A stretch of DNA of 64,000 nt from a virus. The notes below the pieces were generated by a model. It was not told the origin of the DNA. It searched no databases and saw only the letters and a list, made by a program, of their open reading frames with translations. Shown here piece after piece: positions 7,195 through 64,000 of the stretch (positions within the stretch are counted from its first letter, which is position 1; every line of letters begins with the position of its first letter). Position numbers and translations under genes: made by a program. The DNA lies in the IMG/VR virus record IMGVR_UViG_3300031521_000021, positions 32,001 through 96,000 of that record; one strand, given 5' to 3'.

Positions 7195-7790
7195 TAACTT
7201 AAGATAAATATATTACTTGGATTGGCTACGTAGTAGACAAGACAAAGGCTTTGGTTCTTGTGCCTAGCAAGAACATATACTATAGTGAATATAAGTCTTG
7301 TAGCTAACGCTACGCTTTTCTTCCCTTATGGTCAGATAATTTATTTAACTTAAATTAGATACTTATTTACTGCCAAGAATTAATACTTTTAAGATTCCAT
7401 AGAAGTTCGGAAAAGTTAAAAATATTACTATATAATTGAGAATGAAAACCATATAAAAACCACCTTTTATAAGAACTTTGTTATATTAATTTATTAAATA
7501 ATGCTTGACTTACATATCTATATGATGTATTATAATATCAAGGAAACAAAGATAAAACACAAAAAGAAATATGGAATTGCTTATTCTCAGAAGCTTTTGG
7601 AGCATTTTGGAATGAATCTGAAATAATGAGAATAATAAGAGAATATATTCCTCAAATAATGAATATAGTAAATCATCCATGTTGTAAGGGTTGCGTTACT
7701 GTAATGGATAAATAAATTAATAATAATTGGAGAAGTGAAAACACTTCTCTTTTAAATATATTAATAAGTAATAAAGGAGGTGATAATATA

Positions 7791-8126
7791 ATGAAAATCT
7801 TTTATTGTCCTAAGTGTAATACATATGAAGAAAATTTTAAATTTGAGAATCTTAAACAAGAAAGGGAATTAACCACATGGATTAATCCAAGAGACGGCTA
7901 CGGAATGATTATAAAACATATAATGTGTCCAAGTTGTGGTAATGTTTTAAGTGGGATTATGGAAGCTAGAAGCAATGACAGAGATGAAGTGTCATACTTA
8001 AAAGGGACTATTGAAATGTATAACAAAGAATCTAAAGATGGTGGAATGATAAACGATGGTGAATTAAAATGGTTAATTGACGATATAAAAAGAAGAAAAG
8101 GACTACGAAAAATTGATATTGAGTAA
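7791..8126 (+). CDS. Zn-ribbon hypothetical protein (CPKC...CPSC), paralogue of 50696-51019
   Basis: Two CxxC motifs; near-identical N-terminal half to the 50696 ORF. Confidence 0.75.
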   Translation: MKIFYCPKCNTYEENFKFENLKQERELTTWINPRDGYGMIIKHIMCPSCGNVLSGIMEARSNDRDEVSYLKGTIEMYNKESKDGGMINDGELKWLIDDIKRRKGLRKIDIE

Positions 8127-9553
8127 GGAGGTGAACAGAATGGAAGAAAATAATATAAATAAATTAAGTACTCCGACATTAAAGGTAAAACAAATAGAAA
8201 TAGGCGAATCAACATTTCAAATATTATTTAAAAATATATCAGATGTTGATAAAAATAAAATAAAAAAATTTAATCATATGATATATGGACTACCTATTAT
8301 AATATCAGAGGATATAGATTTAATATTTAATCGAATGAAAATTAATTATAGTGATGGAACAAGTAAAATAATGAAAATATTTGACAAAAATTGGTTTATT
8401 GACTATAACAAGATAATTAACAAAGGGGCATGATTAGTTTGAAACCAACAAAAAAAGTACAAGAAATCAAAAACGAATTGAAAGTATATAAAACTCATTG
8501 TAATCAATACTCCATATGTAAAAATTCTAGCACAGATTATTGTTATAAGTGCAAAGAAAATAAAAAATTAAATAATTATTTTGAAGTAGTAAAAGAAAAT
8601 GATTTTTCAATTTATACTCAAAAAAAAGATATTATAAATAAAATCAATAAAATTTATATCAGTACAAAAATAGAAATTCAAGAAGAAAATTTATTATTAA
8701 TAGGATTCTTATCAAGCATATTTGAAGAGTACATAATTATAACTGTAAATAATATAGATAGATACAAAATTAAGAAAAATGATATTAAACAATTAAAAGT
8801 ATTTAATAAATAAATTATAAATATAAATAAAGGAGATAGATGAATAAATGAAAACAATTAAGAAAGTATTATTCAAAAAAGAATATGAATCACCAATAGC
8901 TTATGGCTATGAGAAGGAGCATAAGGTTAAGACCTACATAGAGGTAATAGCATGGTTTGATTTTAAAGAAGGATTAAGATTTAGTGTAGGAGTAGCAAAT
9001 GTATCATTCTGTTATAAAAACCCGTTTAAAGCATTTATAAGAGCATTAGAACATGAAAGTATAGGAATGCAAAAGTATCAACAAATGAAAGAAGATAGTA
9101 GGAAAGCTGGAGTTTATAAGAAGTTAGATATTGGATTTTTAAATCATACCGTAAATAATTGAATAATAATGGAAGGTTAAAAATGAAAAATATAATTAAA
9201 TTAGTAACAAGAGAATATATTATAAATACTTTGTTAGATAAAAACAATATTACTGAAGAAATTATGGATAAAATTTATATGAAACTTAAAAAGGATAATT
9301 CAGAATTAAATGATTATGGTTGGAAAGATTTATATTTAAGTGATATACAAAATATAATTGATAACCATATAAATATACTAAAATAAGTTTGAGGAGGTAT
9401 TAACATGAAATGGGTTTGCCCAAGGTGCAATAAGGAAAATGAAGACACTTTAGATATTATTCAAATGGAATATGTAGGATGTAGAGAATGTGATAAATTA
9501 TTTGAAATAGATTTAGATAACGACGGAAACATTGAATCTATAAAAGAGTTTTA
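8113..9553 (+). other. Run of short hypothetical genes (8113-8433, 8430-8813, 8848-9162, 9159-9386 and a small Zn-ribbon ORF at 9404)
   Basis: Co-oriented ORFs with GGAG RBS; no recognised domains. Confidence 0.65.
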
Positions 9554-10324
9554 ATAAATTGAAATGTTGTTAAATAAGAAATTACTTGAACTATAGAAAT
9601 ATAGTTCTTTTCTTTTGTTTAAGTATAGTTTAATAATCAATATTACTTTAAAACAACTCTTTTAAAAGCCTTGTGTATTAATAAATTAAAATATATAAAA
9701 ATGAAAAACAGAGTAATTTAAAGAAAACATGAGATAAATAAACAATAGTTATATTAATTTGTTTTAAATTACTCTGTTTAACCTTAAATGAACTTTTACA
9801 AATATAAGATATAATGTTAATATTAATACATAGACAAGGTGAACACAAACAAAACAAATTAATAGACAATACAAAAGCCACTCACTATGAAGGAGTTAAG
9901 GCAAATAAGGAGTAGATTAATATGAGTAACTATTGTAAAATAACTTTTATAGATGATACTGAAAGATTAGCAGAAAAGGACACCCTACAATTTTTATTAG
10001 GAGTTAAAACTGTTAAATCACAAATTTTTACATATAAATACCTAACAATCAAAGAACTTGAAGAAGAATTAACACCTATAATGTTTGTTTAACAAGTAAA
10101 TATAATTAACAAATTAATAGTAAATAAAAGTCTTAAATGACTTAAAAGGAGTTTGATTAATATGTTTAAATCAATATTCAGCAAAAAGAAAAAGGCAAGC
10201 GAAGTAAATTTTGATGATTTAACAAATAGATTATTAGACAAAAATAGTAAATTAGCGGAACAACTTAAAAGTAATAGTGCTAAATAATAATAAAATAATA
10301 TAGAATGAAGGAGTTTGATTAATT

Positions 10325-12339: not shown

Positions 12340-15183
12340 TTGATATATATGGAATTAGATTTATATTTTAAATTAAAAGAAGCGTATGAAACAACTACTG
12401 CAAATTTTAATAGATTTGAAAAGGCTATACATAAAATAAAATGGGATAAAAATTTTGAAGCAGATGGCGAAACATACTTTGTAAAAGGTAGATTTAGCTT
12501 AACTATTGAAAATATAAATCCATTTAAAGAACAATGGAAACCAACAGTTTTCACTTCTGATAATTCAATATTAGAATTTTAAGAGACTAGAGTAATCTAG
12601 TTTCTTTTATAAAATAAATTAAGAAAGAGAGTGTAAAAAATGAATAGAGAAGAAATCACAAGTAAATTACAAATAAAAAATATTGATGGTTTAAAGTTTG
12701 GAAATAATAAGGCTTATTGTATGCCTAAAGGATATGCCTTATATCATCCACAATTAGGATTTATAGGGTTAGGAAACAAGAACGAAGAATTCAACATTGA
12801 TTTACCTTATACGCCATGTGGAGGACGTAAGGCATTAAAGAGTATAATTGACGAAGGTGGCTTATTAACTTATGATAGTAATGAAGTAACATGGATAAAA
12901 TCATTAAATTAAAATAGGAGATGGAATTATGAATAATAATGAAAGAAAAATAGAGGTGTCAGTTACACCTCATCCTTGGGATAATAAAGATAATCCATAT
13001 TTTTGGTGTATATTGGATTGGGATAATAAAAATAAAACTTGGTTTAATAATGGTTTTGGATGGAGTAAATCAATAGAACTAGCATTTAAAGATGCAACCG
13101 ACTATTTAGAAAAATATAAAAATTAGTAAACTGGATTCACTCCAGTTTATCTTTTTGATGAAATATAATTGAAAATAATAATCAATAACAACTTAAAACA
13201 TAAGTTTTAAAAGAATTTTATCGAACAGTTCCTTTATTAATTTATTAAAAAGTTTAAAAAACCTATTGTAATATGATGTAGATATGGTATAATTATATTA
13301 ACAACAAGGAACAAATTAATAAATACATAGGAGTGAATTGTAATGGAAAGAAGTAATAAATTATCAGAGTTAACAGAAAGAGAAAATGCAATATTATGTT
13401 TTGGTGATAGATTTTATGAAGCAAACGATCACCAACGTGCGTTACAAAACGCTTTGGAAAATGAAAATATAGAAATAGACTATGAAGATGTTGTTAAGTG
13501 CAAAGGAATAGAAAAAGAATATGGAATGTGTGCAATGAATCATTATGTAATAAATATAAATAGTGAGGAAGATTACTTAATAATACAAGCAACAGAATAT
13601 TTTAAAAATATAAAATGGAAAGCATTAAAAGAATTATGGGATGAATATAAAATGAGAACAAAAGGTTATTCTAAGTTAAGAATTGGATATTGTTTAAATT
13701 ATCGTGATGACAATAATTGTTTTAAAACATTGTTTATAGTGACAGGAAATTTTTCGGAATTTAAAAAAGAAGTAAAAGCTAAACTAAAAGATAAATCAAA
13801 TAAACTAATTCAAAATTTTGGCGATATTAAATTAAGTTTGGAAGAAGTAAATAAATGTATATCTTATAACTAGTTGTCTTGTTAAATTATTAATTTTAAT
13901 TCTCGTTAATTTCTATTAATTTATTTCAAAAAGATATTTACAAACAAATTAATATATGTTAAAATAAATTTATCAGCTAATAGAAAATAAAATATAGGAG
14001 TGGTGATAAATGAAAAAAATTAGAGTAACAAATAGTAATCCAGCAGAAGGTCAAACAGGTTTAGAGGAATACATAGGAATGGAATTTGATACAGTTGAAA
14101 CATGGAAAACTAGAAATACAACTTTAGAAGATGGTCAAGTAGGTGTGGTATTAAGATGCAAGAATGATTTAAACCCAAAAGGACAATGGAGCATATTGAA
14201 TAAAGGTGAATATGAATTTATATAGAAGGAATTGAGGTTGTAGAAATACAACTTCTTTTTACAAATAGTAAATTAATCAAGTAGGAGGGGGACAAGATGT
14301 TAAGAGGAAGAGATAAAGAACTATATAAAAAATACAATATTGATCCAGATATTATTAATTGCAATACATACTTGGTACAAGACGAATATGGATTTGTTCA
14401 AAAACATGGAATTGAAATGGAAATAATCCCATTAAAAATAAGTATTAAGTGTGATATGTCAGATTCAATTACATTCAATTTTAAAAGATGCTTAATGATG
14501 GTTAGATGTATATTAGATAAGTATAATATATAACCTTAAATTAAATCTAGAATCAATTCTAAGGAATAACAGGATAGATCATATTACTATACAATTAAAC
14601 ATGCCCAGAGAGTCTATAAAGGGTAATGGAGTATTTATAAAATAAGAATTTTAAGTGGTGCTTTGTTATATTAATTTATTAAAATAGTTCTTGACTAAAA
14701 TCTGTATTAAGCTTATAATAAATATAACAAGTAAAACAAATTAAGCTAAAGGAGAGATTGATTATGGCTAGTAAAAATTTACAATATAAAGTTAATGGAG
14801 TACCTAACAAAGAGGATATAGAAAATTTTGATAAGGATAGTTCAATATTCTATAGATTTCAAAATCCTTATAATAGATTAACTAGTCGTAGCCAATCTTG
14901 GGGCATGATTTTTGGATCAAAGGCAGAAGCATTAAGAGATTGTGAAGAATGGGGAATGACAAAAGAGGAAGCTATACTAAATGGGAAATCATGTATGTTA
15001 ACTTTTGATGAGATTTTAAATTTCTCTAGTGAATTTTCTTATGATGATGTATTATTAATTTTTGAAGGTAGTGAAACAAATGAAACTGGACATGATGGTG
15101 AATTAGTAGCTACATATTATAAAAAAATTGCAGTATGGAATAAAATAGATGTATCAAATTATGCTAATAAAATTTATGAATAA
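12340..15183 (+). other. Short hypothetical early genes (12340, 12640, 12929, 13343, 14010, 14297, 14758) in separate promoter units
   Basis: Each unit has a sigma-A-like promoter, RBS and often a terminator hairpin. Confidence 0.7.
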
Positions 15184-15249
15184 AATTGTTTAAAATGATT
15201 AGTAAAAATAATTGCTAATCATTTTTTATTATTGTAAAATTAAGCAAGG

Positions 15250-15951: not shown

Positions 15952-16826
15952 AAATATAAGTCCTTATTTAACCAGAACTAAATGAGAATGGAAACCAATT
16001 AAAAGTCAACTTTTATTTAAACTTTATTCTATTAATTTGTTGACAATGTATTGTATATTTGATATACTAGTATCAAGAAGTTAAACAAATTAAAAATAAT
16101 TAAAAGGCGGTATAAATTATGGAAAAAGTAAATTATGTTTTAGATGTAAAGAATTTAAATGAAGATGTAAAAGAGATGTTATTATCTTATGGTGGAGATT
16201 ACTGCAAAGATGATGTAAAAGTTGATGCTGAACAATACAACGTTATTATTACTCAATACATAGGAGAAGACGAATATAGATTTTATGGATTCAAGGTAGA
16301 AGGTAATATATATATTGGTAGAGTTCAATATATATCAGGATTTCCTAAAGATATGTATATAGATGAGTTCTTTAATTTTGGTCAAGTAATGTAATAAATT
16401 ATAATTATGAATGGAGTAGATAAATATGAAAGATAATAAATATATAGATTTTGATTTTGAAGGTTCAGCAAGTTACAATTGTGTTATGAGTGCAACAAAT
16501 GAACAATTATTAAATAGATTACCATATACAAAATACGCTGTAGAATATCATATAAAAGAAAATAATTTAGGACAAGTTAAATTCTTTACAGATGAACTAA
16601 ATCTAATTAAGAAAAAATTAAAACTATCATAAAGAACTCGAAAGGGTTCTTTTATTTTACTTAAAATATAATTGAAAACAATAATCAATATCCTTATAAA
16701 TACTCAGTTTTAATTGATTGTAGTTATGTTAATTTATTAAATATATGTTGCAATTGGTAAAGTATAGTAGTAAAATAAACTTGTACAATAAATTAAATAA
16801 ATTAAATGAAAGAAGGAGATACATAA

Positions 16827-17736: not shown

Positions 17737-20700
17737 ATGAGAATAACTAAAGTAAATAATAATATACTAAAGATAACAGACAAAGATAATATACAATATT
17801 TAGTATGTAGAGATGTTGATAAATTAAGAGAAGATAGAAGTTATTTTAATAGTGTAATTAGAAGACATTTACAAGAAATAAAAGCAAAATATATATTAAT
17901 GGCTTCAAAATCATTTTATGAATATGTTTTTCTTTTATATGATGATAGAGAAAAGTTTATAAAAGCATGTTGTGAACCTTCATCATTAAGATTAAATAGA
18001 GATGATTTATTAAAAATAGAATAGATGATAATTATTAAGAACCTTAGAAATAGGGTTCTTATGTTTTTGTAACTGAAAACAATAATTAATAACCAATTAA
18101 AAAACTTATTTTATTAAAAAATAATTCTGTTAATTCATTGAAAAGTATTGACTTAAAAGGACATTAGATTTATACTATATATAACAAGTAACAAATTAAT
18201 AATAAATGCTACCTACTCAATTGAGAGGTTAAAGCTTACATAAGGGAGTTTGATATTTATGAAAAATTTAGAAATGATTAAAAAAATGGTTGCAGAAGAT
18301 GTTCAAGAAGCTATGGATAAACTAATAGGAGTTTTAATAGAGTTAGAAGATGAAGATATGATTGACTCAGAAGAAGTTTTTTATAATAAATATTCAAATG
18401 GTGGGTTTTTCAAGTGTGAAGGAGTTATAACAAGTGATGATTTATATTTAACAGATAGATGTTATTATGAATATGAAGAAAACGAAAATGGTTCAATATT
18501 AGTTAAAGAGATAACAAAAGAATCTATAATGAATACTATAACAGAAATTGAAAATATACTAAAAGTTGCTTAATAGATAGGAACTGTTTTATAAAGTCCT
18601 TGTTTTAACTGGTTATTATTTTTTGTTAATTTATCAAAAAAAGTATTGAAATAAATAAATTAATAGAGTGTAATAAAGACATAAACATAGGATACATATG
18701 GAAGATTTAGAAAATATGATATAATAAAATTTAAGGAGTGATTAATAATGAGTAAAGTATTAATTCAATCAATTCAAGGGACTAAAATAACAGAAGTAGA
18801 AGGAAGTTTAAAAGAAGGGTATTCAAATATTTCTTATATTAAAGTAACTGATTTAGAAACAGGAAAAGAACTTGATTGGAAATTAGGTGTGTTCACACAA
18901 GGAAAGGGACAGGTTCTTACAAGAGAAGAAGCAGAGCAATTAAATAAAGATTATGGATTTATGTATTTAAATATTAACCCATATAAAGAAGATAATGATC
19001 TAACTGCAATATCATTATTAACTAAATTAGGTTATATCAGAGATTGGGATGTGGACGAATATGACAATAGATATCAAGAATATTTTGAGGGATATATTGT
19101 CATAGGGGAAATAGAATTAGAACAAGCTAAGAAGTTATCACAAGAATATCAAAAAGAATGTTATGTATATTAGAACTGGGGATAAAAACCAGTTCTTTTA
19201 TTTTGTTAAATCTATAATTTTATCTGTTGAATAAATAATATATACTTGGATATAAATTTAATATATAATTTAGTTATTATAAGGTGGTGAAATAATCAAT
19301 GACAATATTAATTAAAAATATCAATAATAGATGGGTGTATGATAATTTTATTCGAAAAACAGACTCACCAATATCTGAACAAAAAGAAAAAATGAATAAT
19401 TATTTAGAGCATGGATTAATAGATTTGATTTCTAAACATGTAAAGAAAGAATTTGATATAATACCTAAAAGGTTAGCTGTAGAATTTTTAGAGTCAGAGA
19501 ATGCTTTTAAAATAATTAGAATAGGAGTGCTATAACATTTAAGACTATCAGAAAATAAAATCTGTTAGTCTTTTATTGTGTTTGATAGTCTTAAACAACA
19601 AAACCGACTCACTACAATGTATCAGATTCAATTATAAGCCATATAGGTATATACTAAGACCTTTAAAATTTAAAACGCTTATACGGTCAATATGGGTTAT
19701 ATTTGTATTAGATTACATATAGTGTTGATAAAGCCAGTATTTTTAGCAGTAAAAAAAATAATTTAAAATATTTAAACAAATTAACAGAAAAAGTATTGTA
19801 TTATTATATATGATATGTTATACTTATATCAGAAGTTAAGTAACAGATAAAAAATAATTCTAAGGGGTTGGAAGTTATGAAGAGAATAGTTGATAGAGAC
19901 AAATGTGCAAAGTACATAGCAAAAAATAGTTTTTGTACATTCGAAAGAGCAAAAGATTATATAGATAATGGTGTTGAAACTTTAACATGGCTTAATATAA
20001 AACCTATAAAATGGGGAAAGTTTGAAATAGAATATAAGTAAGGGTGGGGAAGAAAAGTGAATAAAGTATATTCTGCATATTTAAATGAAGAACCAGTTAA
20101 AAAATTTGAAATATCTGAAAATGAATCAATTGAAACTGTTTATAAAAATTTTACAGAATACGGAATTAAAAAACTATCAGGTCATGTAGATTATTTTTAT
20201 GATGAATCCATTGAAGTAGGTAAGTTTTACTTAAGTAATGGAGTAGATAAATTATTCTTAAAAGAAGAAAAGTAATTATATTAAAATAAATATAAAAGAG
20301 GTTGATATATTATGATTTTAGAAAATAAATTTAGTAAAAATAGAAGTAGTATGGATTTAGAATATGATGAATTAGTTTATTTGTTGGATGATGCTGTATC
20401 AAAGAAATATGGAGTTTGGAAACAAAATGTTCCTATGAGTATAATTAAATATGTTTCAAGAAAATCAGAATTACTACCAAATGGAATGAGATAATAGGGG
20501 AAATAATTTTTAAAATTGAAGGAGTGTATTGATATGTATAAACAATTTGAGAATATAGAAATTTTAATAAAAGAAAATAAATTACAAGAAACCATTCAAA
20601 GTATGTTTATCTTAGCTAATGACTATACCGAGAAAACTAATGGATGGGAAAATAAAGAAGAAAATATGTGCGATAGATTATGTGGGGTATTTGCAGATAA

Positions 20701-24621: not shown

Positions 24622-26228
24622 AAAATATTATCAAACAAACGTGAAAAATTATCAAAAATTCACGTTTGTTTGAATACTAACTATTGATAAAACTTATATT
24701 TTAACAAATTAATAGGAGGTTATAAAAATGAATTTTAATAATTTAGAAATAACATTAAATGATAAAAACAATATTGATTTTGGAATGGAGTTATTAAAAA
24801 TAAATGATATTTTATGTCAACGACTTGGTAAAAGGGTATTAGATAAAGCTATTAATAAAATTGTAAATAGTTTAGACAAAAATAATTGTATTGAAAATTA
24901 TAGAGAAACAATATTGCCTATAAATTATGTAAACATAAGATTAAGTAGTTTAAATTTAAATAGAGTATGTGAAAATATTAAATTATAAAGGAGTGATTAA
25001 GATGTTAGTGGTAAAAGTATATTCAAATGATAAACCATATGGTTATCTTGACAAAGAAAGATGGGATATTACAGAAAATATGAGCAATGCAATGATATTT
25101 AATGATAAAGAAATAGAAGAAGCTAAATATACTGCTGAAAGATTTGCTGATTGTTTTGATAGTGATGAAGAATATTGGACTACATGTAAAGTGGCTAGAT
25201 GGGAAGTAAAAGAAACTATAATTTGAGAATATGTTTGCTTGTGTAATTATAAAGGAGGATTAATATGGACAATAAAGATTATGGATACATAGAAAAAGAA
25301 TTTAAAAACCAAAAAGAGGATAATATGAAACCAGTTAAATTTACTAAATCATTATTAGATGGTTTATTTAAGAAATTTAATACTTATGCTTATACTGAAC
25401 TTTATTATGATTCGGAAGTAGACGACGATGATAGAAGTTATAAAGGTGAAAATATGACTGATGAAGAATGGGAACAATATAAGAACAATTATGATTCTAG
25501 AAGATTTAATAATTGGTGTGACCCTTATGAAGAAGGTATCTGGGGATTTACTAATCAAAGAATTAAGAAATTAATTATATATGAATTAAACAATCTTAAA
25601 AAGTATCAATATATTAATTTAAATGATATTAGATTTTATATGAATGAAACTGAAGAAAAAGTCAATATTTATTTTTATGGTAGAGATTTAGAAGACTTAC
25701 AATGTGATTATTGGTTTTGTTTTTATAAGTCAGAATCTAACAAATGTTTAATCTGTAAGAAAGGTTCTTGTTGGAAACATTCAAGATGTGGTGATAAGAA
25801 AATAAAAATTTTAAATTAGAAGATATAATAAAGGTTATTAAGATAAAAGGGAGCGAAAGTAATGAAAGTATATAGAATATGGATAGCTTATAAATCAAAA
25901 ACTAACATTAATACTTTGATACCATACAAAAGAAGACGTTTTGTGTTTCATAATGATGAAGAATGTGAGAATTATATAAGAAATAGAATTAAAAACGTTA
26001 TAAAAGATGTTTGGCATTTTTCAAGTGCAAGTTATGCAATATTAACAGAAAATGACACATATATAATTGGAAGAATAGTTGAGTAAAAATATATTAAAAC
26101 CACTTAAAATCTAAATTTGAAGTGGAATTGTTAAGGCTAGAGATAGCCTTATTTTTATGAATTAAAATATTTTATAATTCTATTAATTTGTTATTGCAAT
26201 AGTAAAAATACTATGATATACTAAATAC

Positions 26229-31344: not shown

Positions 31345-31376
31345 TATTATTTATATTTCAAAAGGAGGTGGTGATC

Positions 31377-31557: not shown

Positions 31558-31585
31558 AATAAATTATAAAAGGAGAAATACAACT

Positions 31586-32977: not shown

Positions 32978-33123
32978 ATTAAAGAGAATATACAAAAGAT
33001 AAAACCTCCTTGTGGGGTAATTCTAGTATATCTAATAGGTATTTTAGAATTAATTCACAAGTGAAAATCTCTGTGGATTATAAATATTATAGGTGACGAC
33101 TGAGCGTCAAAAGGAGAATTTTT

Positions 33124-44551: not shown

Positions 44552-45704
44552 ATATTTTGTAGGAAAAGAATATCACACATTAAAAGAAAAAAATGACATT
44601 TTAGAAAGTTATGATAAACTATATAAAAATAAACTAGATTTTTTAAATGAATTATATGATAATCAAAATACTTTGAAAAGATTATGGTCTACTTATATAA
44701 GACATATTCATCAACATGAATTATTATTAGAAAAAGATGCTATGTTTTTTGATGAAAATGAAGTAGATGAAGTTATAGCAAGCAAATTTACCTATTCATC
44801 TTCAACTAAACAAGGAATGTTATTCTTCATTAAAACTTATAAAACTTGGGGAATGGACAGAGGAGATATCCAAGGAAATAGTGCCGAAACATTAAATAAG
44901 AAAAATACAACTAAAACTTCAAAGAAAATTTTAGAAAATAAGTTATGGGGATTAGGAGAATTTTATAATCTATTGGTAGAAATAGAAAAGAAATCTACTT
45001 TTATTGGTGGAATAGCATTTCTTTTAGTTAGATATGGAATCGCAGGAAAACAATTAATTTATACTAGAAATGTTAGATGGGAAGATATTGATTATGAAAA
45101 AAAACAAGTTCATATAATTAATGAGAATGAGAAACTTGTTAGAATCGTTGATGTAGATGATAGATTTTTAGAATGGATAGATAAATATAAGAATGAAAAG
45201 TATCCAGCAGGTATTTCTTCAGGACGTATAATAGAAAAATCAAAACATTCTAGAAATGGAGATATAATTGAAAATTATAATACTATGAATAATAGAACTT
45301 TTAAAATTGCTAAAGATTTAATGATACCTAGAATATCTTTTGGAGATGTATTTAAATCAAGATATATGGATATGTTATTAGAAATTAGAGCAACTAGAAG
45401 ATTAACCACAGATGACTTTGAATGGGTGTTAATGAATTTTAGTGATAAATCTGCTAATATGACGATATATAATCTAAGAGAAATGTATGAGACAATAGCA
45501 AAAGAAGATGTTATAATGAAAAATAATTTAAGTCAGCCAACAAAATCACTTAAAGATCCCCATGCAAAAGAATTTGTAGAGAAATTACGCAAAGAAATGG
45601 GATATGAGGAATTTATAAATGGTGAAGATAAGTTTAACAACAAAGAAATAGAGTCAGAAGTACAAAAAGAAGTAAGTGCTGATTTAGATAAGGTTGAAAA
45701 TTAG
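44541..45704 (+). CDS. Tyrosine-recombinase-fold protein without the catalytic signature; YopR/MrpR (SroF)-like master repressor candidate
   Basis: LLVRYGIAG...VRWEDID (box I without R); no HxxR or LGH; E...EKD...F...EV N-terminal pattern; synteny with YopQ-like gene. Confidence 0.7.
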   Translation: MKNKYFVGKEYHTLKEKNDILESYDKLYKNKLDFLNELYDNQNTLKRLWSTYIRHIHQHELLLEKDAMFFDENEVDEVIASKFTYSSSTKQGMLFFIKTYKTWGMDRGDIQGNSAETLNKKNTTKTSKKILENKLWGLGEFYNLLVEIEKKSTFIGGIAFLLVRYGIAGKQLIYTRNVRWEDIDYEKKQVHIINENEKLVRIVDVDDRFLEWIDKYKNEKYPAGISSGRIIEKSKHSRNGDIIENYNTMNNRTFKIAKDLMIPRISFGDVFKSRYMDMLLEIRATRRLTTDDFEWVLMNFSDKSANMTIYNLREMYETIAKEDVIMKNNLSQPTKSLKDPHAKEFVEKLRKEMGYEEFINGEDKFNNKEIESEVQKEVSADLDKVEN

Positions 45705-46021: not shown

Positions 46022-46104
46022 AAGATTATAGAAATGAAATAGATTAATAGAAATAAAAAAGTAATTTTAAAGGGAAATTAAAAAAATTTATTAATTAAAG
46101 GAAG

Positions 46105-49330: not shown

Positions 49331-49673
49331 CAAAGTTAACTTAAAATTGAGAATTTACTCAAAAACACATTGAAGGGAGGTGATAGTACATGATTATAGA
49401 TATTCTAAAGAAGCAAATTGAGAAACTATATCTAGGTTCAAAGAAAGTATATACAGATGATAGTTGGTTAACTCAAGATGAAATTGATAGGATAATTGAA
49501 ATAGCTAATAAGTTACAAAAATAATACTCTGAAAGGAGGAGGATGAAATAAACAGAAACACTAAAGGTGAATACCCATTATGGGTTAGTTTGAGGATATA
49601 TGGATGGTATCTTGAAATTAGCCTATAAGGATTAAAATACAAATAAATTAAGACAAAAATAAATAAAAGAAGG

Positions 49674-52580
49674 ATGATTAAAATGAATCAATTAGAAAGA
49701 ATAGGAAGAATACTAGGAATAAGTACAAATATGGACGAAAGCAGATTATGTCTAACAATTCAAGATAAGATTAAAGAAAAAGATAGTAAACTTAAGGAGA
49801 AAGATTTTTGTTATTATATGGTTAAGGCAAAAAATGAGAGATTAGAAAGTCAAGTACATAATTTAAAGAATGAATATGCTGAGAGTATAGGAATACAAGA
49901 GCATATGATGTTAAAGAATTCTCATGAAAGTTTGAAAAAGAATAATAAAAACCTTTTAGAAGAAAATTATAATTTAAGAACATCTATTGAACAGTATAGA
50001 GAAAATGACTTAAAAGATAGAATAAAGAAAATTCAGGGAGTGAGATAGATAAATGGAGGAAGGAACGTGTTTAAGAGATTGTATAGCTTATTTATTCAAT
50101 ATCCCTCAAGAAAATATTGAAAACTTTATTGAATATGATGATTGGTTAGATAGATTAGAAACTTTTGTTAAATCGTTAGGATACAAAATGATAAAACATG
50201 ATTATATTAATGAACTTGAAATTCCAGCAGATAAATATTTAGTTTGGGGAAAATCTGTAAGAGGTAATTATCATTCAGTAGTTCATAGTAAAGGACATTT
50301 GGCATTTGACTTTTTAGAAATTGGAGATAAGGCTAATGAATTTATAATTGATTATTATCATAAGGAATGTGACAAGTGGATACATGGAGTTAAAGATATT
50401 TACCAATATGTGTGGTTTGAAACAATAAAGGAGTGAGATAAAGATGGCAATTAGAGAAAGAACAAAGAAAAGAAGAAGTAAAATTTTTAAATGAAGTTGT
50501 ATTTGATGAGAGAAAGATTGATAAAGTAATTGAAGAAGTTGGGAAATATATACAAGATGATAAAAAGATAAAAGATGAATATATGACAAAATAATATTTA
50601 AAGAATGGCTTAAATAGGGACTTTAGGAAGTGGAATATTATGTTAAAAGGTGAATTTTAAAAGAAAATAAATTAATAGAAACGAGGAAAATAATTATGCA
50701 AAATATATTTTATTGTCCTAAATGTGGCAAGTATGAAGAGAATTTTAAATTTGAGAATCCAAGACAAGAAAGAGAGTTGACTACATGGGTTAACCTTAGA
50801 GATGGTTATGGTAGACATATAATGCATATTATATGTCCAAGTTGTAATAATGTATTAGCTGGAATTATGGACGTAACAGGATTTGATGAGGATGATATAT
50901 GGTATGCTAAAACAACAATAGATAAATATAATAAAGAATCAAAAGATAAAGGATATATTACAGATGGTAAATTAGAATGGTTGATTAATGATATTAAAAG
51001 CAAGAAAGGAATTGAATAAGATGAAAAGAGAATTAAGAGATAAACAAAGATTTTATGAAGATTATTCAGGATATAGTGAAGAAGAACTAGATAATAAGTT
51101 AAAAGAATTAGGAATAGATATTGATAATTTTTCTGAATACAATAGATATATGCCAATACATGAAGTTAAATCAATTATTATACAAAATGAATTATTTGAA
51201 TTAAGAGATAAAGGATAAATTAATAGAAGCAAATAAAATAAATGGAGGAATGTAAAAATGAAAAAAGAATTTGAAATGATATTAGAACAATCTAAAGAGG
51301 CACATAAAATAAATAAGGCAATACATAAACAAAGATTAGAACAGGAAAAATTAGATAAGCAATTAAAAGAAAAAGAGATAGAAGCTAAAAGGGAAAATAA
51401 AATTACTATAATTAACTATGAAACGGAGTGTTATTCTAAAGAATTATTAGAATTAATCAAGCAATATAAATTTAGCATTGAATCTTATGAAAGATTTGAA
51501 GATATAGATTATGATGATTATTGTCCAACCTTAGAAATATACTATTGTAATTTTGGTAATTGGAATTTTGAAATTAAAAACTTTAGTGATGTGGATATAG
51601 AAGAAGGTATATTTGCAATTGGAAAAGTAAAAAATATAACAACTAATGAAGAATTAGAGTTTTATTGTGATTTAGGTTGTAGAAATACTGGAAAAGATAA
51701 ATTAAATCATTTCCTAGATTTTATTACATATAACTCTTTACAAGAATATATTAGTGAAAAATATGAAAAATATGTTAAATTACCTAAGTTGCTCAAAGAA
51801 CAAGATTATAATATTGAAGAAATAAATTATTCATTCAAATTAAATGAACCACAAGGATATTTAAAACTAGGTGATAAATTATTTGTAAAAGTGTATAGAG
51901 CTTGGAGAGACGATTTTAAATTAGTTGTCACAAATGATTATAAATGGGACGTAAATTCTGCTAATGACAGTATAAAAAATATCTGGAGCAAGAAAGCATA
52001 TTTCTTTAATTATAACTCAATAGACGATATAAATGAACTTTGTAAATGTATTGAATCTTTTAAAGATGATCAAGCTGGTAGAATCGGCTATATTGAAGAT
52101 AATTTATATTATAACAATAATAATGTAATAAGATTTTTTGATGGACTAAAAACCGAAAAGAATAGAGAAGCATTTAATACTTATTTGATACAAATAGAGA
52201 ATCAAAATTATTGGGATAAAAGAGGATATGATGAAGATAATTCTCTAATAACAAATAAATATAAAGGTTTAGAAATGTATGTAAAAACAGAATTAACATT
52301 TAACGATGCACGTTCTTGGTCTGAGGGAAATTTAGTTAATAAATCAATTTTTACTGTTGAATATGATAAACGTAAAAATGCAGACAAAATAAAATTATCT
52401 ATAGATAATTACATATATGAATCAGAGGATGATATTTTAGAGTTTGATAATGATTCAGAAGAATGTAAACACAAGCCATCAGAAAGTACTATTGAGATAT
52501 ATGGTAATTTTACAGAGATATACTTAGTATTGGAAGAATATGTACATACTATGTTTAAAATTCATGAAATTGAAATTTAG
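49674..52580 (+). other. Hypothetical genes (49674, 50053, 50988, 51258)
   Basis: RBS-preceded ORFs. Confidence 0.65.
50696..51019 (+). CDS. Zn-ribbon hypothetical protein, paralogue of 7791-8126
   Basis: IFYCPKC..YEENFKFEN..QERELTTW.N.RDGYG shared. Confidence 0.75.
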   Translation: MQNIFYCPKCGKYEENFKFENPRQERELTTWVNLRDGYGRHIMHIICPSCNNVLAGIMDVTGFDEDDIWYAKTTIDKYNKESKDKGYITDGKLEWLINDIKSKKGIE

Positions 52581-52957
52581 AAATGGGGCTATTACTTAGT
52601 TATAGCCATTGAATATTACCATAAAATGGCTATTTTACCTAAATATTTTTCATAGTCTTTAGAACATTTTCTAACTTTTAATAGTATAAAATTAACAATA
52701 TATGGTATAATATATTAAGATTAAATTTTATTAGGGGTGTTTATATGGAAGATATAAGATATTTTTATATGTACAATAATGAAACTGAAAGTAGTTGTCC
52801 TTATTGTGGGAAAGAACTTAACGATTTAATTCCTAGTGGAGATGTAAATGATTTTTACAGATGTCCAAATTGTAAAGAAGACTTTAGAGTTATTAGACAA
52901 GAAGAAGATTAAATATAAAATCCCCAATATTGGGGGATTTGAAAGGACGAAATAAAT

Positions 52958-53300: not shown

Positions 53301-53697
53301 CTTAAAAGAAGACTTTAAAGGGATTTTAAAATAATATGAGGAGGATTTACAATGAATATTAAATTAGAAGTAATTAGACTATATACAGAAGAAGAGAAGA
53401 AAAGTAATCCTATGTTTATAGGAGAAGAAGTTTTAATAGATACTTTTGAAGACATAAAAAATAATTACGAGATAAGACTTATCGATGAAAAGACTAAAAA
53501 TAGCGTTGTAATCAGCAGAGAGGGTTTAAAGAATTGTTATATTAGTTATGATAGTAGTTATTTTTTAAATAACAAAGATAAATTATAAGTAATAGCATAA
53601 TATAAAATCTCGTTTTTAAAGCCTTTTGGACAAGTAGAATAAGCAATGTGGGGAAGTTTAGGCTTCCCTTGAATTTGAAAATATAAGGAGAAAAACA

Positions 53698-57967: not shown

Positions 57968-58108
57968 AACCCTTCTTTTTCTGCATTATAAAGCATTAAG
58001 AAACCAAATAAAATTTGCAATTTATGGGAATATTTTATTGCATGTTAATCGAAAATGTATAAACCTTAAATAATAGATAATACTATTACTGTGAGGTGAA
58101 AATATATT

Positions 58109-58723: not shown

Positions 58724-61700
58724 TTAAGCAAGGAAGTAAAATAATACTTCCTTATTTTTATAAAATATTTAAATAAATTAATAGAATTACTATTGCATTG
58801 ATTGGCAGTTTATGCTAATATTAGTTTAGACAAACAAATTAATATAAGAATGAAAGGAAAGTGTTAAAAATGAAAACTATTTATTTAATTAAAGAATTAT
58901 GTCCTATGTGGAATGATGGAACTGGTGTTGATTATAAGGTAATTAAACCATATGTTTTTGTAAAACAAGAAGAAGCCGAAGAATGTAGATGGGATTATGA
59001 ATACATATCTGCTGATAGAGTCTTATGTACTGAATATGAATTAATTAGTTTAGAAGTAGATGATGAAAATGAATTAAAAGAAATTATTGTTGAAGGTGAA
59101 TTAATTAAAATTTGGCAAATTATTAATGGAGATTACGAGAAAGAATTTAGATATGATATTCATTCATGGGAACAATTAGATTCAGCAGGAAGATTGAATT
59201 TTGAAAGTGATAATTCCGAAGATGAAGCTATTAGTAGATTAGAAGAATTAGATTATTTATATAGTGGAAGTGAATTTTATTAAAAGTGATGTATTAAATG
59301 AAGTTAGGAGGATTAAAATAATGGATAATGCAATGAAATCAATTATAGATAGAAGAACAGGTCACGCAGATATTTGGGAATGTAGCTTAGAAGAATTTGT
59401 TAAAAAGGTATTGCAGGAATGTAATAAACAACAAAAAGAAAATAATATAACTTATAAGATAATGAAACTATGTGCAAGTTTTTTAAGAATGAAATTCAAT
59501 GGAAAAGAATTAAAAGGAACGATAGAATATGAAGTTGCAAAAGCAATTGAAGAGTCAATGATATATTATACAAATGTATTAGGTGAAGATGACTAATTAT
59601 TAGAAAGGAAGGTTGAATTTTTATGTTAACACAAGAACAATTTAATAAAACAGAATTAGAACATGGTTGTGGATATTGGAATTTATGTTGGGAACATTCG
59701 TGTCCTTGTGCAATAACAACAGAAAGTGAAGCTATCTATAACAGTTTTATTGAAGAAAATAAAAGAATAGCAGAAGGATATGACACTTTTGATTATGATG
59801 ATATGATACATTATGAAAGATGCAGAGAATGTGGCAATTTACAAGAAGAAAATAATTTAATAGACGGGTTATGCTATTCTTGTTATGATGATTTAAGAGA
59901 AGAATTAAATGAAATTGATGAAGATAATTAATTGTAAAATATTGTTAAAAGACGTGTTTTAACTGAAAATTATTATCAATTAGAAAGGAGAAAGTTAAAT
60001 GAAAGAGTATGATAATTATTATAAGACAAAATCTAAAATGTTGTTAAATGTACACAAAGCAGTAATTAGGAGTTTGATTAATCATGGAGTATTAGAACAA
60101 GATGATAATATAAATAATGCTTTAAAAATTCTTGATGATGAAATAGAATTGAAAAAGAATGAAAATATTGATAAATTCAAACTAGAATATGATTGTATTT
60201 TAAGCAAGGAGGAAAATTAATGGATTTTAAAAAATTAAGAGAATTCACAGATACACATAATGCTGAAATATTAAAAATGTCTAACTTATATAATGTAGAT
60301 GAAAAATATTTAAAAAGATTGTGTCAAGAAATAGGATTTCAAACTAAATATACTTATTCAGATGCTATTATTTTAGTTAATGATGACTTAGGAAATGGAT
60401 TGAATATTAATCAAATAATTATTAAATATGGGTTAGATAAAGAATTAATTTAAGGAGCGAAGTTTAATGGAATGTATTAATTGTCCTAAATATAAAGAAT
60501 GGAGTTCTGATTCAGATATAGGAAATGAATGTTATTTATTAGGATTTTCTAATTTTAAAAAGTGGGAAAATTGTATATACATAAATGATGATGGAACTAT
60601 AAACCAAGAAGAATTAGATAAATGTCCATATTAATAAAACAAATTAACAGAAATAAATATAGACAAGCTAAAAGAAAAGTTGTAAGATATGATTAAGGAG
60701 GTAAAATTTATGAAGTTTACATACGAAATGAATGAACAAGAGAAAAAGGAATATATAGAAAAGAAAGGTAAGCAAAGAGCATATAATAAAATGAATGACA
60801 AATTAAAATACATAATGAAGGAGAAGATGGGCTATGAGAGAGTATAGTTTACAAGAAGTTTTTAATGAAGAAGAAGGAACAGAATTTAAGGTAAAATATG
60901 AAAAGGGGAGTTGTAATAGAGCAACAGTTAAATTGGTAGAAAAAGAAAAGGAATTTTTAAATAATCATACAAAATTAGTATGGAATAATGGTCAAGATAT
61001 TCAAATGAAAGAAGAATTTGTAACAGCTAAATTTATAAAAGTTCAAGAACCAGTATCTTTTAATGATGTAATTAATTCAAATAAGAAATGCAGTGTTGAA
61101 TTTAATGATTATCAACCAAATCATTATGAAACTCTTAGAGATATTATATTAATCTTAATTGACAGTTATGGAGAAACAGGATTGAAAAAAGCTATTAGAG
61201 AAGGAAAATGGTATTTAGAAAAAGAGTAATTGATAACAACTCTCAATAAATTACTGATTTTAACTGAAACTTAGCTTTGAAAATCGAAGCATAAGTGAGT
61301 ATTTGGAAGTATGAGAGAGTTTAAATTTATAAAAAAGGAGAATGGATTGTAATGGGAAGATGTAATGTAGAACATAATGGTAAGTGGGCTTCTTTTTCAT
61401 CTGTAATAGATGCTTTTATAACAGAGTTTATGGACAAGTCAAAATATGAGGAATGGAGAAAATTAGAATATGGTAAAAATCTTAGACCAATAGAATTTAA
61501 TGTAAAAACAATAAATGATGTTGCATTCTCAATACGTTTAAATAGAACACATGATGATGCTATGGAATGTTTAGCTGAAAGTGGTTTGTCAAAGAAAGAA
61601 TGTGAGCAATTAATGTATGACATAGAAACGGAATATTATGTTCCTATTGTAAAAGCTGGTGAAAAATTTGAATGTCCAAATTGTCATAAAGAAATAGAAA

Positions 61701-62142: not shown

Positions 62143-62760
62143 ATGGCTAGGATATTAACTATTACAGGTGCTAGTTCTTCGGGTAAAGATGCAATTTTTA
62201 GTAGACTATTAAATAAAACTAATATATATCCCATTATATCTACGACTAATAGACCTATGAGACAAGGAGAAGAACAAGGAGTTCAATATAATTTTGTAAA
62301 TAATAATGAAATAGAATATATGTTAGATAATAATGAATTTATTGAATCAAGAGAATACAAGGTTGCAAGTGGACAAACTTGGTATTATGGAATTACTAAA
62401 AACGCAATAGACTTAAATAGTAGAAAAATATATGTAGTTATAGTGGATTTACAAGGTTTAAAACAATTAGAAAAATATATAGAAGAGCAAGGTCTAAAAA
62501 AAGATAAAACTATATTTTCTATATATATAAAAACTTCAGCACAAGAAAGATTAAAAAGGTCTTTAAATAGAGAAGGAAATCTAACAGATGGGCAATGTAA
62601 TGAAATAGCTAGAAGATACTTAGATGATAATATTAATGTGATTTCAGCAGAGAGTTATTGTAAAGAAATATTTTACAATGAAAAACTAGAAGACTTAGAT
62701 TATAGTGATAGATGGATCAAAACAGAAATAAATAGATGGATTAAAGATACGGAGGAATAA
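62143..62760 (+). CDS. gmk: Guanylate kinase-like protein
   Basis: P-loop GASSSGKD; STTNRPMR.GE..GV.Y.FV; F.E....W.YG; VD.QG. Confidence 0.9.
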   Translation: MARILTITGASSSGKDAIFSRLLNKTNIYPIISTTNRPMRQGEEQGVQYNFVNNNEIEYMLDNNEFIESREYKVASGQTWYYGITKNAIDLNSRKIYVVIVDLQGLKQLEKYIEEQGLKKDKTIFSIYIKTSAQERLKRSLNREGNLTDGQCNEIARRYLDDNINVISAESYCKEIFYNEKLEDLDYSDRWIKTEINRWIKDTEE

Positions 62761-63518
62761 GAAGTGGAATTTACAATTTACCAAATGATTAGTTTTCTAA
62801 ATAAAATAGAAAATAAGAACAGAAAATTTAAAAGGGTTGGAGATGATAAATTTATAGTCTTTAGAGGCGGATATAATGATTTATTAATTCAAGTAGGTGA
62901 AATAATCAGGGTATTTCCTATATTTAACTACACACAAGATAAATGGACATTAGAGGAAGAATAATGCAAGCAATAATATTTTCTGTAGGAGTTCCAGTAA
63001 TTTTATTTTTGATAGTACATTTTACAGAAAGACATAAATAAATTAAGATAACAATATAAATATGAAGGAGAATGATTGATATGAATAAAGAATTAAGAGA
63101 TGGATTAAAAAGAAATATAGTAGTAGGGTTACAAAGTTTTAAGTCTATTAATGAGGTATTAGAGGCTGATTATGAAAGGTATAAAACAAAAGGTCAAGGA
63201 TTTGGAACATCAGTATATAGAGGGAAAATAATATTATTAGATATTGAAAATGAACTAGATAAAGACTATGTTGATGATGAAAATGAAAGTCTATATGGTA
63301 ATGTTTTAAAACAAATAATAGCGATAAATGAAATGTTGGATGGTGAGTAATTATGGCAAGAGAGATTAAAGAGATTGAATTCACTAATATTGGGGACTAT
63401 AATACATGGATTGGAAATCAGTATAATTTCAATGATGCGTTTAGAATGATAAAACTTGATATTAAAGATGATGGAACTGTAAACGCACAATACATAGAAC
63501 TATATTAAAGGTGATTAT

Positions 63519-63752
63519 ATGAAAGTAATAGCATATGTAGGATTAGAGAGTACTACACCATTTGAAGTTGAAGTTACTGAAGAAGATATTAAGCAAGGTT
63601 ATGGTTTTGTTCCTTGCTTTGAATGTGAAGGTATAGGAATATGGGATTATTATCTTGAAGATTATTTTGATTATGAAAAAGAAATTCCAACAGGAAAAGA
63701 ATTTCAATGTATAAATTGTAAAGGTACTGGGAAAGTATTAATAAATTGTTAG
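63519..63752 (+). CDS. Small DnaJ-type Zn-finger protein
   Basis: CFECEGIG and CINCKGTG. Confidence 0.65.
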   Translation: MKVIAYVGLESTTPFEVEVTEEDIKQGYGFVPCFECEGIGIWDYYLEDYFDYEKEIPTGKEFQCINCKGTGKVLINC

Positions 63753-64000
63753 AGGAGAGATTTGAAATGAATAATTATGAAAAATTAGAAAGAATATATA
63801 AATTAATATTAAGTTACAAAGATGAATATGAAGATAAAATATCGCTGGAGACATTAAAAGTATCAAATGATATAAGAGAAATTAAAACTGTAGATGATTT
63901 ATTAGAGGATTTAGAAAATAATAAACCTGACTAAAAGCACTTAAAAAGTTAATTTAATTGGGTTTTAAATAAATTATATAAATAAAAAAGGAGCGTATAA

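Follow-up and report, generated by a model that had tools for sequence, protein, structure and literature searches.

What reads the short palindrome that recurs between the genes of an SPbeta-like phage, and to what end? The question is raised by a stretch of 64,000 nucleotides from the IMG/VR virus record IMGVR_UViG_3300031521_000021 (bases 32001-96000 of the source contig; this whole stretch is called the window below, and positions are those of the window unless the contig is named), in which two five-base arms enclose six variable bases (TAAAA-N6-TTTTA) at the boundaries of gene units. An earlier note, made from the letters alone, had seen in these sites a possible integron-like array of units of 0.3-4 kb served by the resident tyrosine recombinase. 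We propose instead, with a probability of about 0.45, that the palindromes are protein-recognised boundary sites common to SPbeta-like phages, which may act as heterospecific crossover sites for a phage tyrosine recombinase.

In this scheme, arms of 11 bp with TAAAA and TTTTA as their inner five bases would be common to all sites, and the 6-bp centre would be the address. A phage-encoded tyrosine recombinase, for which the protein encoded at 37775-38701 is the first candidate, would cross over at the sites; as strand exchange would require identical centres, no reaction would take place among the sites of one genome, and the partner of each site would be its cognate in a related phage or prophage present in the same cell. 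A pair of such crossovers would exchange the intervening genes and keep the gene order. We lean towards this scheme because the matching-overlap rule of tyrosine recombinases fits identical arms with unique, asymmetric and locus-conserved centres, and because contents change in an unaltered gene order, the dyad is where homology starts and the layout of the sites is of the Xer type.

The palindrome, its spread and its surroundings

The window contains 22 exact copies of TAAAA-N6-TTTTA, versus 3.20 expected from dinucleotide shuffles (s.d. 1.69, maximum 8; 0 of 100 shuffles reach 22). This excess is confined to a spacing of six, since all other spacings from 0 to 20 yield 1-6 copies, and the reversed order of the arms yields six. 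Over the whole contig (116.6 kb), 33 exact copies are found at this spacing versus 2-10 at others; 30 of the 33 lie wholly in non-coding DNA (0-3 at other spacings) according to our own crude gene calls, which assign 77.5% of the contig to coding and 22.5% to non-coding DNA. At 9 of the 33 sites, the TAA of the left arm is the stop codon of the upstream gene. Chance and composition are thus ruled out by the dinucleotide shuffles, the spacing scans and the reversed-order controls. Indeed, both counts that the earlier note had put forward as its own checks, against a composition background and between intergenic and coding DNA, came out in favour of the motif, and the position of the sites at unit boundaries is borne out, as are five overlaps with stop codons (20905, 29331, 37292, 40739 and 59283), which match the list of open reading frames (ORFs).

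The inventory of sites required some correction. The ten exact sites named by that note are all present, each one base further right, as a flanking base had been included; its total of 20 exact copies becomes 21 within the range that it covered, plus one at 2852 outside it. It had found none in a control locus at 41.6-49.3 kb, where an exact site actually lies at 46054-46069. The 17 near-exact sites that it listed all exist, but as a class they do not exceed the background: non-coding one-mismatch sites at a spacing of six number 39, versus 17-53 at other spacings, and there is likewise no excess in four relatives. Support, from orthology, is limited to variants in which the innermost arm base is swapped between A and T, eight in the window, of which six have a site with the same centre in a relative; six of the eight were already on that list (13883, 16697, 19207, 40737, 58009 and 61247). 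In coding DNA, near-sites are fewest at a spacing of six in all five genomes compared (tied lowest in one, G005).

The source contig (25% G+C; CheckV completeness 47%) belongs to an SPbeta-like phage. It encodes a portal, a terminase, a TubZ/PhuZ-like protein, an FtsK-like protein and a YopQ homolog directly followed by a protein of the MrpR/YopR/SroF family; about 26 kb read on the minus strand and the other approximately 90 kb, including the entire window, on the plus strand. The window stretch is present in 24 peat-metagenome sequencing runs, none of those listed being RNA. We designate this contig G000, related genomes G001-G011 and three small peat-metagenome contigs L056, L058 and L060. 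G005-G008 were recruited via an alignment of SroF-like proteins (53, 48, 45 and 30% identity), G009, G010 and G011 via the Xer-like protein, and G002-G004 via the YonO-like protein (48% identity); G001 overlaps the late region only, the record of G008 is 59% complete and G009 is a fragment. From the start of the window to the end of the contig, about 30 of some 170 genes have a homolog in G005. No close relatives were found in annotated phage and plasmid collections, nor in viral contigs searched with two single proteins or genome contigs searched with one protein alignment.

Non-coding exact sites number 30, 36, 33, 26 and 38 in five genomes, versus 0-5 at other spacings. Motif and control counts are 43 and 11, 39 and 7, 43 and 6, and 29 and 6 in G005-G008, respectively, with the same sharp peak at a spacing of six, and enrichment extends to G009 (16 versus 1), G011 (25 versus 4), SPbeta (34 versus 2) and the Bacillus phage BUCT082 (37 versus 0). 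No excess was detected in G010 (1 versus 8), in which the SroF-like protein was not found, nor in G002-G004 (7, 11 and 4 copies versus 10, 11 and 6 for the reversed control), in which the SroF-like subfamily was not found either; the latter counts rule out that the motif is a general trait of YonO-encoding AT-rich phages. The motif thus characterises SPbeta-like phages as a family, both those of Bacillus and an AT-rich clade of which one member is labelled Clostridium beijerinckii by its source.

The SPbeta record NC_001884 annotates no TAAAA-N6-TTTTA site in the feature tables of 37.5-41.5 kb and 50-100 kb. It annotates two other palindromes, TTGTAATGCATTACAA and GTAAACCATATGGTTTAC, near yopM and yopS (77856-77871 and 82394-82411). 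A description of the motif was not found in the literature searched, a search that lay outside the 1999 SPbeta genome paper and supplementary files.

When 182 unique sites of five genomes are pooled, each in the orientation of the genes around it, they yield the consensus W-S-C-N3-TAAAA-N6-TTTTA-N3-G-S-W, i.e. a symmetric 11-6-11 dyad of 28 bp whose mirror preferences are independent. The preference for C at -4 (27%, versus a background of 7.5% C) has its mirror image in G at +19 (40%); S at -5 mirrors S at +20, and T at +5 mirrors A at +10; positions -6 and +21 are almost exclusively A/T (C+G approximately 6% and 3%). The half-sites are conserved independently, as in a DNA site read by a protein, and the dyad resembles the layout of Xer/dif sites; the core-site geometry of tyrosine recombinases that had been suspected in the inner arms therefore holds for the pooled consensus. 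Distinct XerC and XerD arms, as in dif and pdif, were not found, as the arms mirror each other. With symmetric arms, the orientation of a site can come only from its centre. No downstream promoter element at a fixed distance and no -10-like signal at a constant offset were found among the pooled sites, and such an element is thus ruled out.

In the early region (7-20 kb), the sites belong to a recurrent layout: a terminator, about 40 nt, the palindrome, 14-16 nt, TATTAATTTRTT, about 9 nt, a -35 box (TTGACT), a -10 box, AACAAATTAATA and a ribosome-binding site (RBS). At least eight early promoters have the palindrome 14-16 nt 5' of TATTAATTTRTT and about 50 nt 5' of the -35 box. Sites within operons lie 20-46 nt 5' of start codons with no promoter in between; in the plus-strand region, 14 of 31 sites are 80 nt or less from the next start, mostly without intervening promoter-like hexamers. 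A leader motif, AAYAAATTAAKA, is also frequent in the contig (76 copies versus 5 for the control). It is co-oriented with the genes just 5' of the RBS (12312-12323, 24704-24714, 58833-58847), and its inverted form is TATTAATTTRTT, just 5' of the -35 box of early promoters (7484-7495, 14669-14680). Exact AAYAAATTAAKA is abundant only in G000 and G005 (2-8 copies in G006-G008); related 9-mers precede starts in G006-G008.

The hypothesis of a promoter for a YonO-type RNA polymerase was rejected on two grounds: according to the available part of PMC5467207, YonO initiates in SPbeta at one site, upstream of yonK, and palindromes are scarce in the late region here (3 in 26 kb). The contig itself encodes, outside the window, a 939-aa single-chain RNA polymerase of this type (minus strand, contig 16628-19447), which shares 51% identity with that of BUCT082, 27-29% with those of c-st and Enterocloster phages and 24% with SPbeta YonO.

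Centres conserved by locus and joints between relatives

The differing centres are not tolerated noise; they are specific to a locus, conserved between genomes and almost unrepeated within one. Twenty-five same-centre pairs link G000 and G005 (random centres: mean 2.8, maximum 7), and all 25 form one collinear chain (shuffled positions: mean 9.6, maximum 12). Likewise, G000 and G007 share 16 pairs (chain of 15), G005 and G007 18 pairs (chain of 17), and G000 and G011 23 pairs, all in order. A comparison by eye of BUCT082 with SPbeta retrieved the same centre for 23 of the 37 BUCT082 sites, in matching order with one inverted. G008, the most distant genome, shares no more centres than chance would give (1-4 pairs). 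Within the window, 19 of the 22 exact sites and 24 of all 30 sites find a same-centre partner in one or more of G005-G008.

Centre distances between G000 and G005 are bimodal, with 25 identical (2.6 expected) and no excess at one mismatch (12 versus 22.9), and G006 and G007 display the same pattern. When orthologous sites are defined by their flanks alone, centres are identical in 9 of 10 cases, the flanks being 74-92% identical (P approximately 9e-5 at 81%), and at five G005 sites an arm carries an A/T swap while the centre is unchanged. A centre is truly repeated within a genome only once, in G006, versus 6.3 repeats expected (Poisson P approximately 0.013), seven further G006 repeats being left out as they belong to the terminal duplication of that contig. 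None of 261 centres is self-complementary (6.7 expected, P approximately 0.001). The 60-nt flanks of 146 same-centre pairs are alignable on neither side in 101 cases, downstream only in 31, upstream only in 9 and on both sides in 5. The centre is thus a locus-specific address, better kept than the DNA around it, with arms that are the same everywhere. Conservation between genomes, together with near-absence of repetition within them, argues against units being shuffled inside one genome and favours exchange restricted to cognate sites in different genomes.

As to the duplication in G006, its first 19 kb or so are repeated at the contig end, with sites recurring approximately 210.2 kb apart, and this record is probably an assembled circle with an overlap.

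The exact sites of the window are listed below with their centres and the genomes sharing them.

2852..2867, TCAATC; G005, G006, G007
7454..7469, ACCACC; 51 nt 5' of the -35 box TTGACT at 7505; G005, G011; homology begins at -1
9649..9664, CAACTC; G005, G011; right flank fused to a 14638-type site in L060
11522..11537, TTAGTA; 5' of the HNH-AP2 gene 11684-12211; same-centre partner not found
13194..13209, CATAAG; 44 nt 3' of the terminator 13126-13150; G005, G011
14638..14653, TAAGAA; 53 nt 5' of the -35 box at 14691; the 16-mer recurs in G005, G011, L056 and L060 in differing flanking contexts
16000..16015, GTCAAC; 40 nt 5' of the -35 box at 16040; G005, G007, G011; island conserved from -33 to +100, genes on either side non-homologous
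18098..18113, AACTTA; 37 nt 3' of the terminator 18036-18061, 50 nt 5' of a -35 box; G005, G011, L058
20903..20918, TATCTA; TAA is the stop of ORF 20516-20905; G006, G007
24688..24703, CTTATA; 25 nt 5' of a start codon, no intervening promoter; G005, G007
27903..27918, ATCAAA; G005, G006, G007, G011
29329..29344, CAAGAG; TAA is the stop of ORF 28894-29331; G005, G006, G007, G011
35109..35124, TCGGTA; G005, G006, G007 (arm variants), G011
37290..37305, CTATCA; TAA is the stop of ORF 36945-37292; 5' of the Xer-like gene; no partner; G008 has a homologous upstream gene without the site
38904..38919, TAAATC; 3' of the Xer-like gene; identical, syntenic 16-mer in G005, G006, G007, G011; upstream flanks unrelated between genomes, downstream flanks related
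39569..39584, TAGGAA; overlaps the end of ORF 39277-39576, 2 nt 5' of the next start; G008
40292..40307, ATCTGA; G007, G008, G011; G005 with a TAAAT arm
46054..46069, AAGTAA; 3' of three tandem promoters and 5' of the MazF-like gene; G005, G011; no other site lies inside a high-scoring segment pair (HSP) with at least 40 nt on each side
50644..50659, GGTGAA; G005 (TAAAT arm), G011; three centre changes in G007
52622..52637, TGGCTA; G005, G007, G011
53603..53618, TCTCGT; G011
59946..59961, GACGTG; G007

The variants with one A/T swap are as follows.

13883..13898, TAAAT-N6-TTTTA; 15 nt 5' of TATTAATTTATT; G011
16697..16712, TAAAT-ACTCAG-TTTTA; same centre in exact sites of G005, L060 and G011
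19207..19222, TAAAT-CTATAA-TTTTA; G006, G007
19750..19765, TAAAA-N6-ATTTA; doubtful member, no partner
40737..40752, TAAAA-TCTTAG-ATTTA; TAA is the stop of ORF 40353-40739; G005, G007, G008
49342..49357, TAAAA-TTGAGA-ATTTA; doubtful member, no partner
58009..58024, TAAAA-TTTGCA-ATTTA; a block with 98.9% identity to G005 has its left edge here
61247..61262, TAAAT-TACTGA-TTTTA; G005, G011

Homology between relatives often begins at these sites. The left ends of HSPs fall within 12 nt of the start of a palindrome in 9 of 116 cases versus 1.1 at random (maximum 5), the distance being 0-1 nt in six of the nine; for G011, 8 of 42 left ends do so. Left ends also fall at the leader motif (15 of 116 versus 3.7). 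The tblastx coverage of segments lying between same-centre sites varies between 0 and 90%, and some segments combine 0% with different lengths; fully replaced segments include those starting at the sites 7454 and 29329 (7454..9649, 2179 versus 671 bp; 29329..35109, 5764 versus approximately 1050 bp). The breakpoints between relatives, which the earlier note had put forward as a check, thus agree with the sites in part, for left ends and for whole inter-site segments but not for right ends, which are considered below. The block 58001-58847 (847 bp) is 98.9% identical to G005 in surroundings that are at most 80% identical or lack any match; it begins at the 58009 site, ends just after AACAAATTAATATAA and contains 58109-58723, which encodes a 204-aa zinc-finger-like protein with 98.5% aa identity to its G005 counterpart. 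It is the latest of the shared blocks and a sign of very recent exchange.

The small contigs provide individual joints and fresh variants. In L060, a left flank with its 14638-type site is fused to the right flank of the 9649 site, the junction being the right edge of the dyad. In L056, a 14638-type site and its UP stretch are fused to the -35 box of the 16827 promoter, the crossover lying within the shared UP/-35 sequence. L058 is devoid of the gene 17737-18024. No internal duplications bounded by sites were seen in the contig.

Two further features of the window adjoin palindromes. The gene 11684-12211 has two paralogs on the contig beyond the end of the window (contig 96009-96572 and 99175-99699). 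It is the only paralog scanned and carries an HNH_3 domain and a weak AP2 domain; a variant site (12220) directly follows its stop and the palindrome 11522 lies upstream. The three paralogs look like free-standing homing-type endonucleases. Besides, 1.7 kb at 2217-3962 lack a credible ORF, with an A/C-rich plus strand, a negative GC skew amid positive values and one palindrome (2852).

Candidate readers and competing explanations

Three genes of the window encode proteins that have to be considered as readers of the sites or as their neighbours.

37775..38701, plus strand, Xer-family tyrosine recombinase, candidate enzyme (Pfam Phage_integrase, 2.8e-35)
43085..44551, plus strand, YopQ/SroE-like protein (BLASTP 5e-9 to SPbeta YopQ; in all of G005-G008)
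44541..45704, plus strand, MrpR/YopR/SroF-like integrase-fold protein, probable repressor (PF22822 and PF22823 present in its homologs)

The recombinase gene is bracketed by the sites 37290 and 38904, as had been remarked from the letters alone. By sequence, its product matches XerD (5e-25) and XerA (7e-24), the XerC, XerA and XerD models remaining under their curated cut-offs. The catalytic set R..K..HxxR..H..Y is complete and kept in four aligned orthologs (in synteny in G005, G006, G007 and G011), and the position of the gene is constant, the SroE/SroF-like pair following about 5 kb downstream. The best-conserved site of all, TAAAATAAATCTTTTA, lies just 3' of this gene and is identical in G000, G005, G006, G007 and G011. 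Similarly, BUCT082 has a palindrome 2 nt after its annotated integrase gene, and SPbeta a site with the same centre about 400 nt after yomM. To our knowledge, no role has been assigned to the SPbeta tyrosine recombinase genes yomM and yopP. The designation of the 37775 protein as the candidate enzyme thus keeps its support from the catalytic residues and synteny, but its link to the motif across genomes is weak, as detailed below.

The four G000 proteins common to all of G005-G008 are encoded in one locus (43085-47572): the YopQ/SroE-like protein, the MrpR/SroF-like protein, a 258-aa MazF/PemK-domain protein, 5' of whose gene stand three tandem TTGACA promoters (45705-46104), and a 209-aa protein. 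For the MrpR/SroF-like protein, we used an alignment-based structural model (mean predicted local distance difference test, pLDDT, 73) and discarded the single-sequence model (pLDDT 37). The top seven PDB chains matching this model are SroF, YopR and MrpR, with 9rd5, 8bj6 and 8a0a as top matches, and the Arg I position aligns to Lys in a weak hhalign comparison of the Xer-like and SroF-like families (E 0.076). Of the seven motif-rich genomes, all but the fragment G009, where it was not found, have the SroF-like protein, and it is absent from motif-poor ones; four of these genomes had been selected by this very protein.

Despite this co-occurrence, the MrpR/SroF-like protein was rejected as the likely reader of the palindromes. 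In the available part of PMC10516654, chromatin affinity purification sequencing (ChAP-seq) of MrpR in SPbeta gives ten peaks, all at SPBRE, as compared with 34 palindromes in SPbeta; as far as the accessible text of bioRxiv 10.1101/2025.11.27.690993 goes, the SroF box of phi3T is asymmetric, spans 26 bp and is bound by a monomer. From seven SPbeta upstream regions, we derived SPBRE as caaatACAAAAAATATGTAT, which sits before the -35 box or directly before the RBS; at PaimR of SPbeta, the order is palindrome, 14 nt, SPBRE, -35. Since AAYAAATTAAKA/TATTAATTTRTT occupies the place of SPBRE, the leader motif, and not the palindrome, is likely, from its position, to be the box of the SroF/MrpR-like repressor.

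Several results weigh against a crossover role of the palindromes. The right ends of HSPs coincide with palindromes in only 1 of 116 cases versus 1.0 at random (0 of 42 for G011); they lie instead near start codons (22 versus 5.6 expected) and at the leader motif (10 of 116 versus 3.8), so that the conserved unit is a regulatory island reaching from palindrome to leader and not a cassette reaching from site to site. Neighbouring genes are no longer adjacent at 12 of 29 junctions with a palindrome versus 85 of 322 others, an approximately twofold difference that is suggestive at most, being non-significant and drawn from non-independent pairs. G010 has an Xer-like gene (42% identity) and no motif excess, and G008 has the motif and only a weak partial match to the recombinase in its incomplete record. 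The L056 crossover points to ordinary homology, and the accessible part of bioRxiv 10.1101/2020.05.06.055103 reports on phi3T x SPbeta hybrids, in which regions of homology were the place of joining in 15 of 16 cases. The fixed 14-16 nt from the site to the next motif, in the early promoters mentioned above, fits a regulatory role. Lastly, selection keeping centres just for future exchange would be weak, so that their conservation calls for frequent horizontal flow or a second function.

The main competing explanation is that a symmetric DNA-binding protein, of phage or host, occupies the dyads as operator, roadblock or insulator, and that mosaic joints accumulate there only because selection keeps regulatory islands while genes are replaced by other means. 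We regard it as rather unlikely, in spite of evidence in its favour: the placement after terminators, ahead of TATTAATTTRTT and the -35 box or shortly before operon starts, the symmetric and independent half-site preferences, the avoidance of near-sites in coding DNA, the islands spanning palindrome to leader motif and the same layout at SPbeta PaimR, with the dispersed operators of the integrase-fold repressor MrpR/SroF as a precedent (PMC10516654, in its available part). However, a regulatory site leaves unexplained why centres differ by locus and yet are identical across deeply diverged genomes, why they are rarely repeated and why self-complementary ones are absent, and its obvious candidate, MrpR/SroF, is improbable for the reasons given above. 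Less probable again, and in our opinion improbable, would be passive linkers, i.e. sites and leader motifs serving as short conserved sequences for general, short-homology or template-switch joining with no dedicated enzyme. The L056 crossover in the shared UP/-35 stretch, the clustering of homology ends at the leader motif, the stop of the 58001-58847 block after AACAAATTAATATAA and paralogous cassettes that are 75-85% identical over 50-80 nt are all consistent with such linkers, as are the phi3T x SPbeta joins, mostly at homology, and the precedent of the PeSL cassettes described below (PMC2839356, in the part available). Nevertheless, sixteen identical bases are few for homologous recombination, and passive joining does not account for invariant arms with a symmetric 11-bp extension or for the lack of self-complementary centres.

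The two remaining explanations can hardly be sustained. An integron-like array, in which the 37775 recombinase would excise, insert and shuffle units of 0.3-4 kb within the genome and tolerate unlike spacers, was the proposal of the earlier note, and the unit-boundary position, the recombinase-type geometry and the L060 joint between two sites of unlike centre agree with it. It is nonetheless very improbable: the collinear order of 25 of 25, 15 of 16 and 23 of 23 sites is the reverse of what shuffling would give, no fold resembling attC is formed, the sites do not delimit internal paralogs and extend over more than 80 kb, and the integron integrase model TIGR02249 gives the recombinase 75.2 bits versus a curated cut-off of 265, the XerC, XerA and XerD models scoring far higher. 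An RNA-level signal (hairpin, terminator or processing site) would suit the intercistronic position and the overlap with stop codons, but is the least credible of all. Twelve folded sites have minimum free energies of 0 to -5.9 kcal/mol, the helix at -5.9 forming without the arms and arm-paired folds not exceeding -4 in strength; the best fold bypasses the arms in 4 of the 12. No extra complementarity beside the arms or inside the centre was found relative to shuffles, only the 5+5 bases pairing, and compensated double variants are not enriched in non-coding DNA (4 compensated versus 12 mirror non-compensated). Neither a fixed downstream T-run nor the G+C-rich stem of a terminator was found at the sites, and the 11 terminator-like elements at 7001-27000 are all separate from palindromes.

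Heterospecific crossover by a phage tyrosine recombinase therefore remains the reading that we retain, at the probability given at the outset. The fuller proposal, namely that SPbeta-like phages would carry a natural cassette-exchange system of approximately 30-45 dif-like heterospecific sites, with crossover between cognate sites of co-resident genomes only, is put forward somewhat more tentatively.

Comparison with known systems

The pdif modules of Acinetobacter Rep_3/OrfX plasmids, as described in the available part of PMC13141974, also feature many arm-6 bp-arm sites separating accessory modules that differ between replicons, and that part of the source terms the pdif system unique to Acinetobacter. 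Here, in contrast, the sites belong to an SPbeta-like phage of Firmicutes, their arms are symmetric, C and D modules do not alternate and a single candidate recombinase is encoded by the phage itself; centres are nearly all different within a genome, and their order is conserved between genomes. A second parallel is provided by the promoter-early stem-loop (PeSL) cassettes of T4-type phages, which in the accessible text of PMC2839356 are regulatory cassettes repeated between small non-essential early genes in plastic regions. As with PeSL, indels and replacements between relatives end at cassettes here, and the L056 crossover lies inside a promoter cassette. The order terminator, palindrome, UP, promoter occurs at 7-20 kb, but 14 of 31 sites of the plus-strand region stand close to the next start, mostly without promoter-like hexamers, as noted above. 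Unlike PeSL, which involve homology between copies and can form mini-circles within a genome, the present sites have unique centres, a conserved order and as their core a dyad of 16-28 bp in place of a promoter with terminator, and no within-genome circles or deletions were seen.

The likeness to integrons is limited to sites at gene boundaries, sometimes including the stop codon, with a tyrosine recombinase gene nearby; a long imperfect palindrome folding as single-stranded DNA, the IntI signature, an attI/Pc platform and any change in order are lacking, and many sites have their own promoters. The SPBRE/SroF box shares with the palindrome the phage family, dispersed intergenic sites and an integrase-fold homolog (encoded here at 44541-45704), but it is asymmetric, with a single fully conserved sequence and ten peaks, whereas the centre of the palindrome, present 34 times in SPbeta, varies. 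The stoperators to which the repressor gp71 of mycobacteriophage L5 binds number about 30, lie in short spaces between genes and in part overlap stops or starts, and thereby resemble the palindromes in their distribution; unlike them, stoperators are asymmetric 13-mers with one consensus, oriented with transcription and devoid of a variable centre.

A further parallel is an engineered one. In recombinase-mediated cassette exchange with heterospecific lox or FRT sites, arms are identical, spacers differ, only cognate sites react, and a double crossover replaces the intervening DNA and keeps the order. We hypothesize, by analogy, that the palindromes could be a natural phage counterpart of such heterospecific exchange. 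Phage mosaics do keep gene order, and the origin of joints at gene boundaries is debated between chance with selection and dedicated linker sequences. If our reading is true, the palindromes would embody, at the molecular level, the 'linker sequences' that the modular theory of phage evolution invokes, and by which accessory genes reassort locus by locus, and yomM and yopP of SPbeta would be given a role. Should a regulator read the sites instead, they would constitute a new clade-wide control element beside the MrpR/SroF operator. In either case, SPbeta of Bacillus subtilis, with its 34 sites, is a genetically tractable model that carries them; and if a recombinase does act there, these sites would be the first phage counterpart of pdif modules and a natural analogue of heterospecific cassette exchange.

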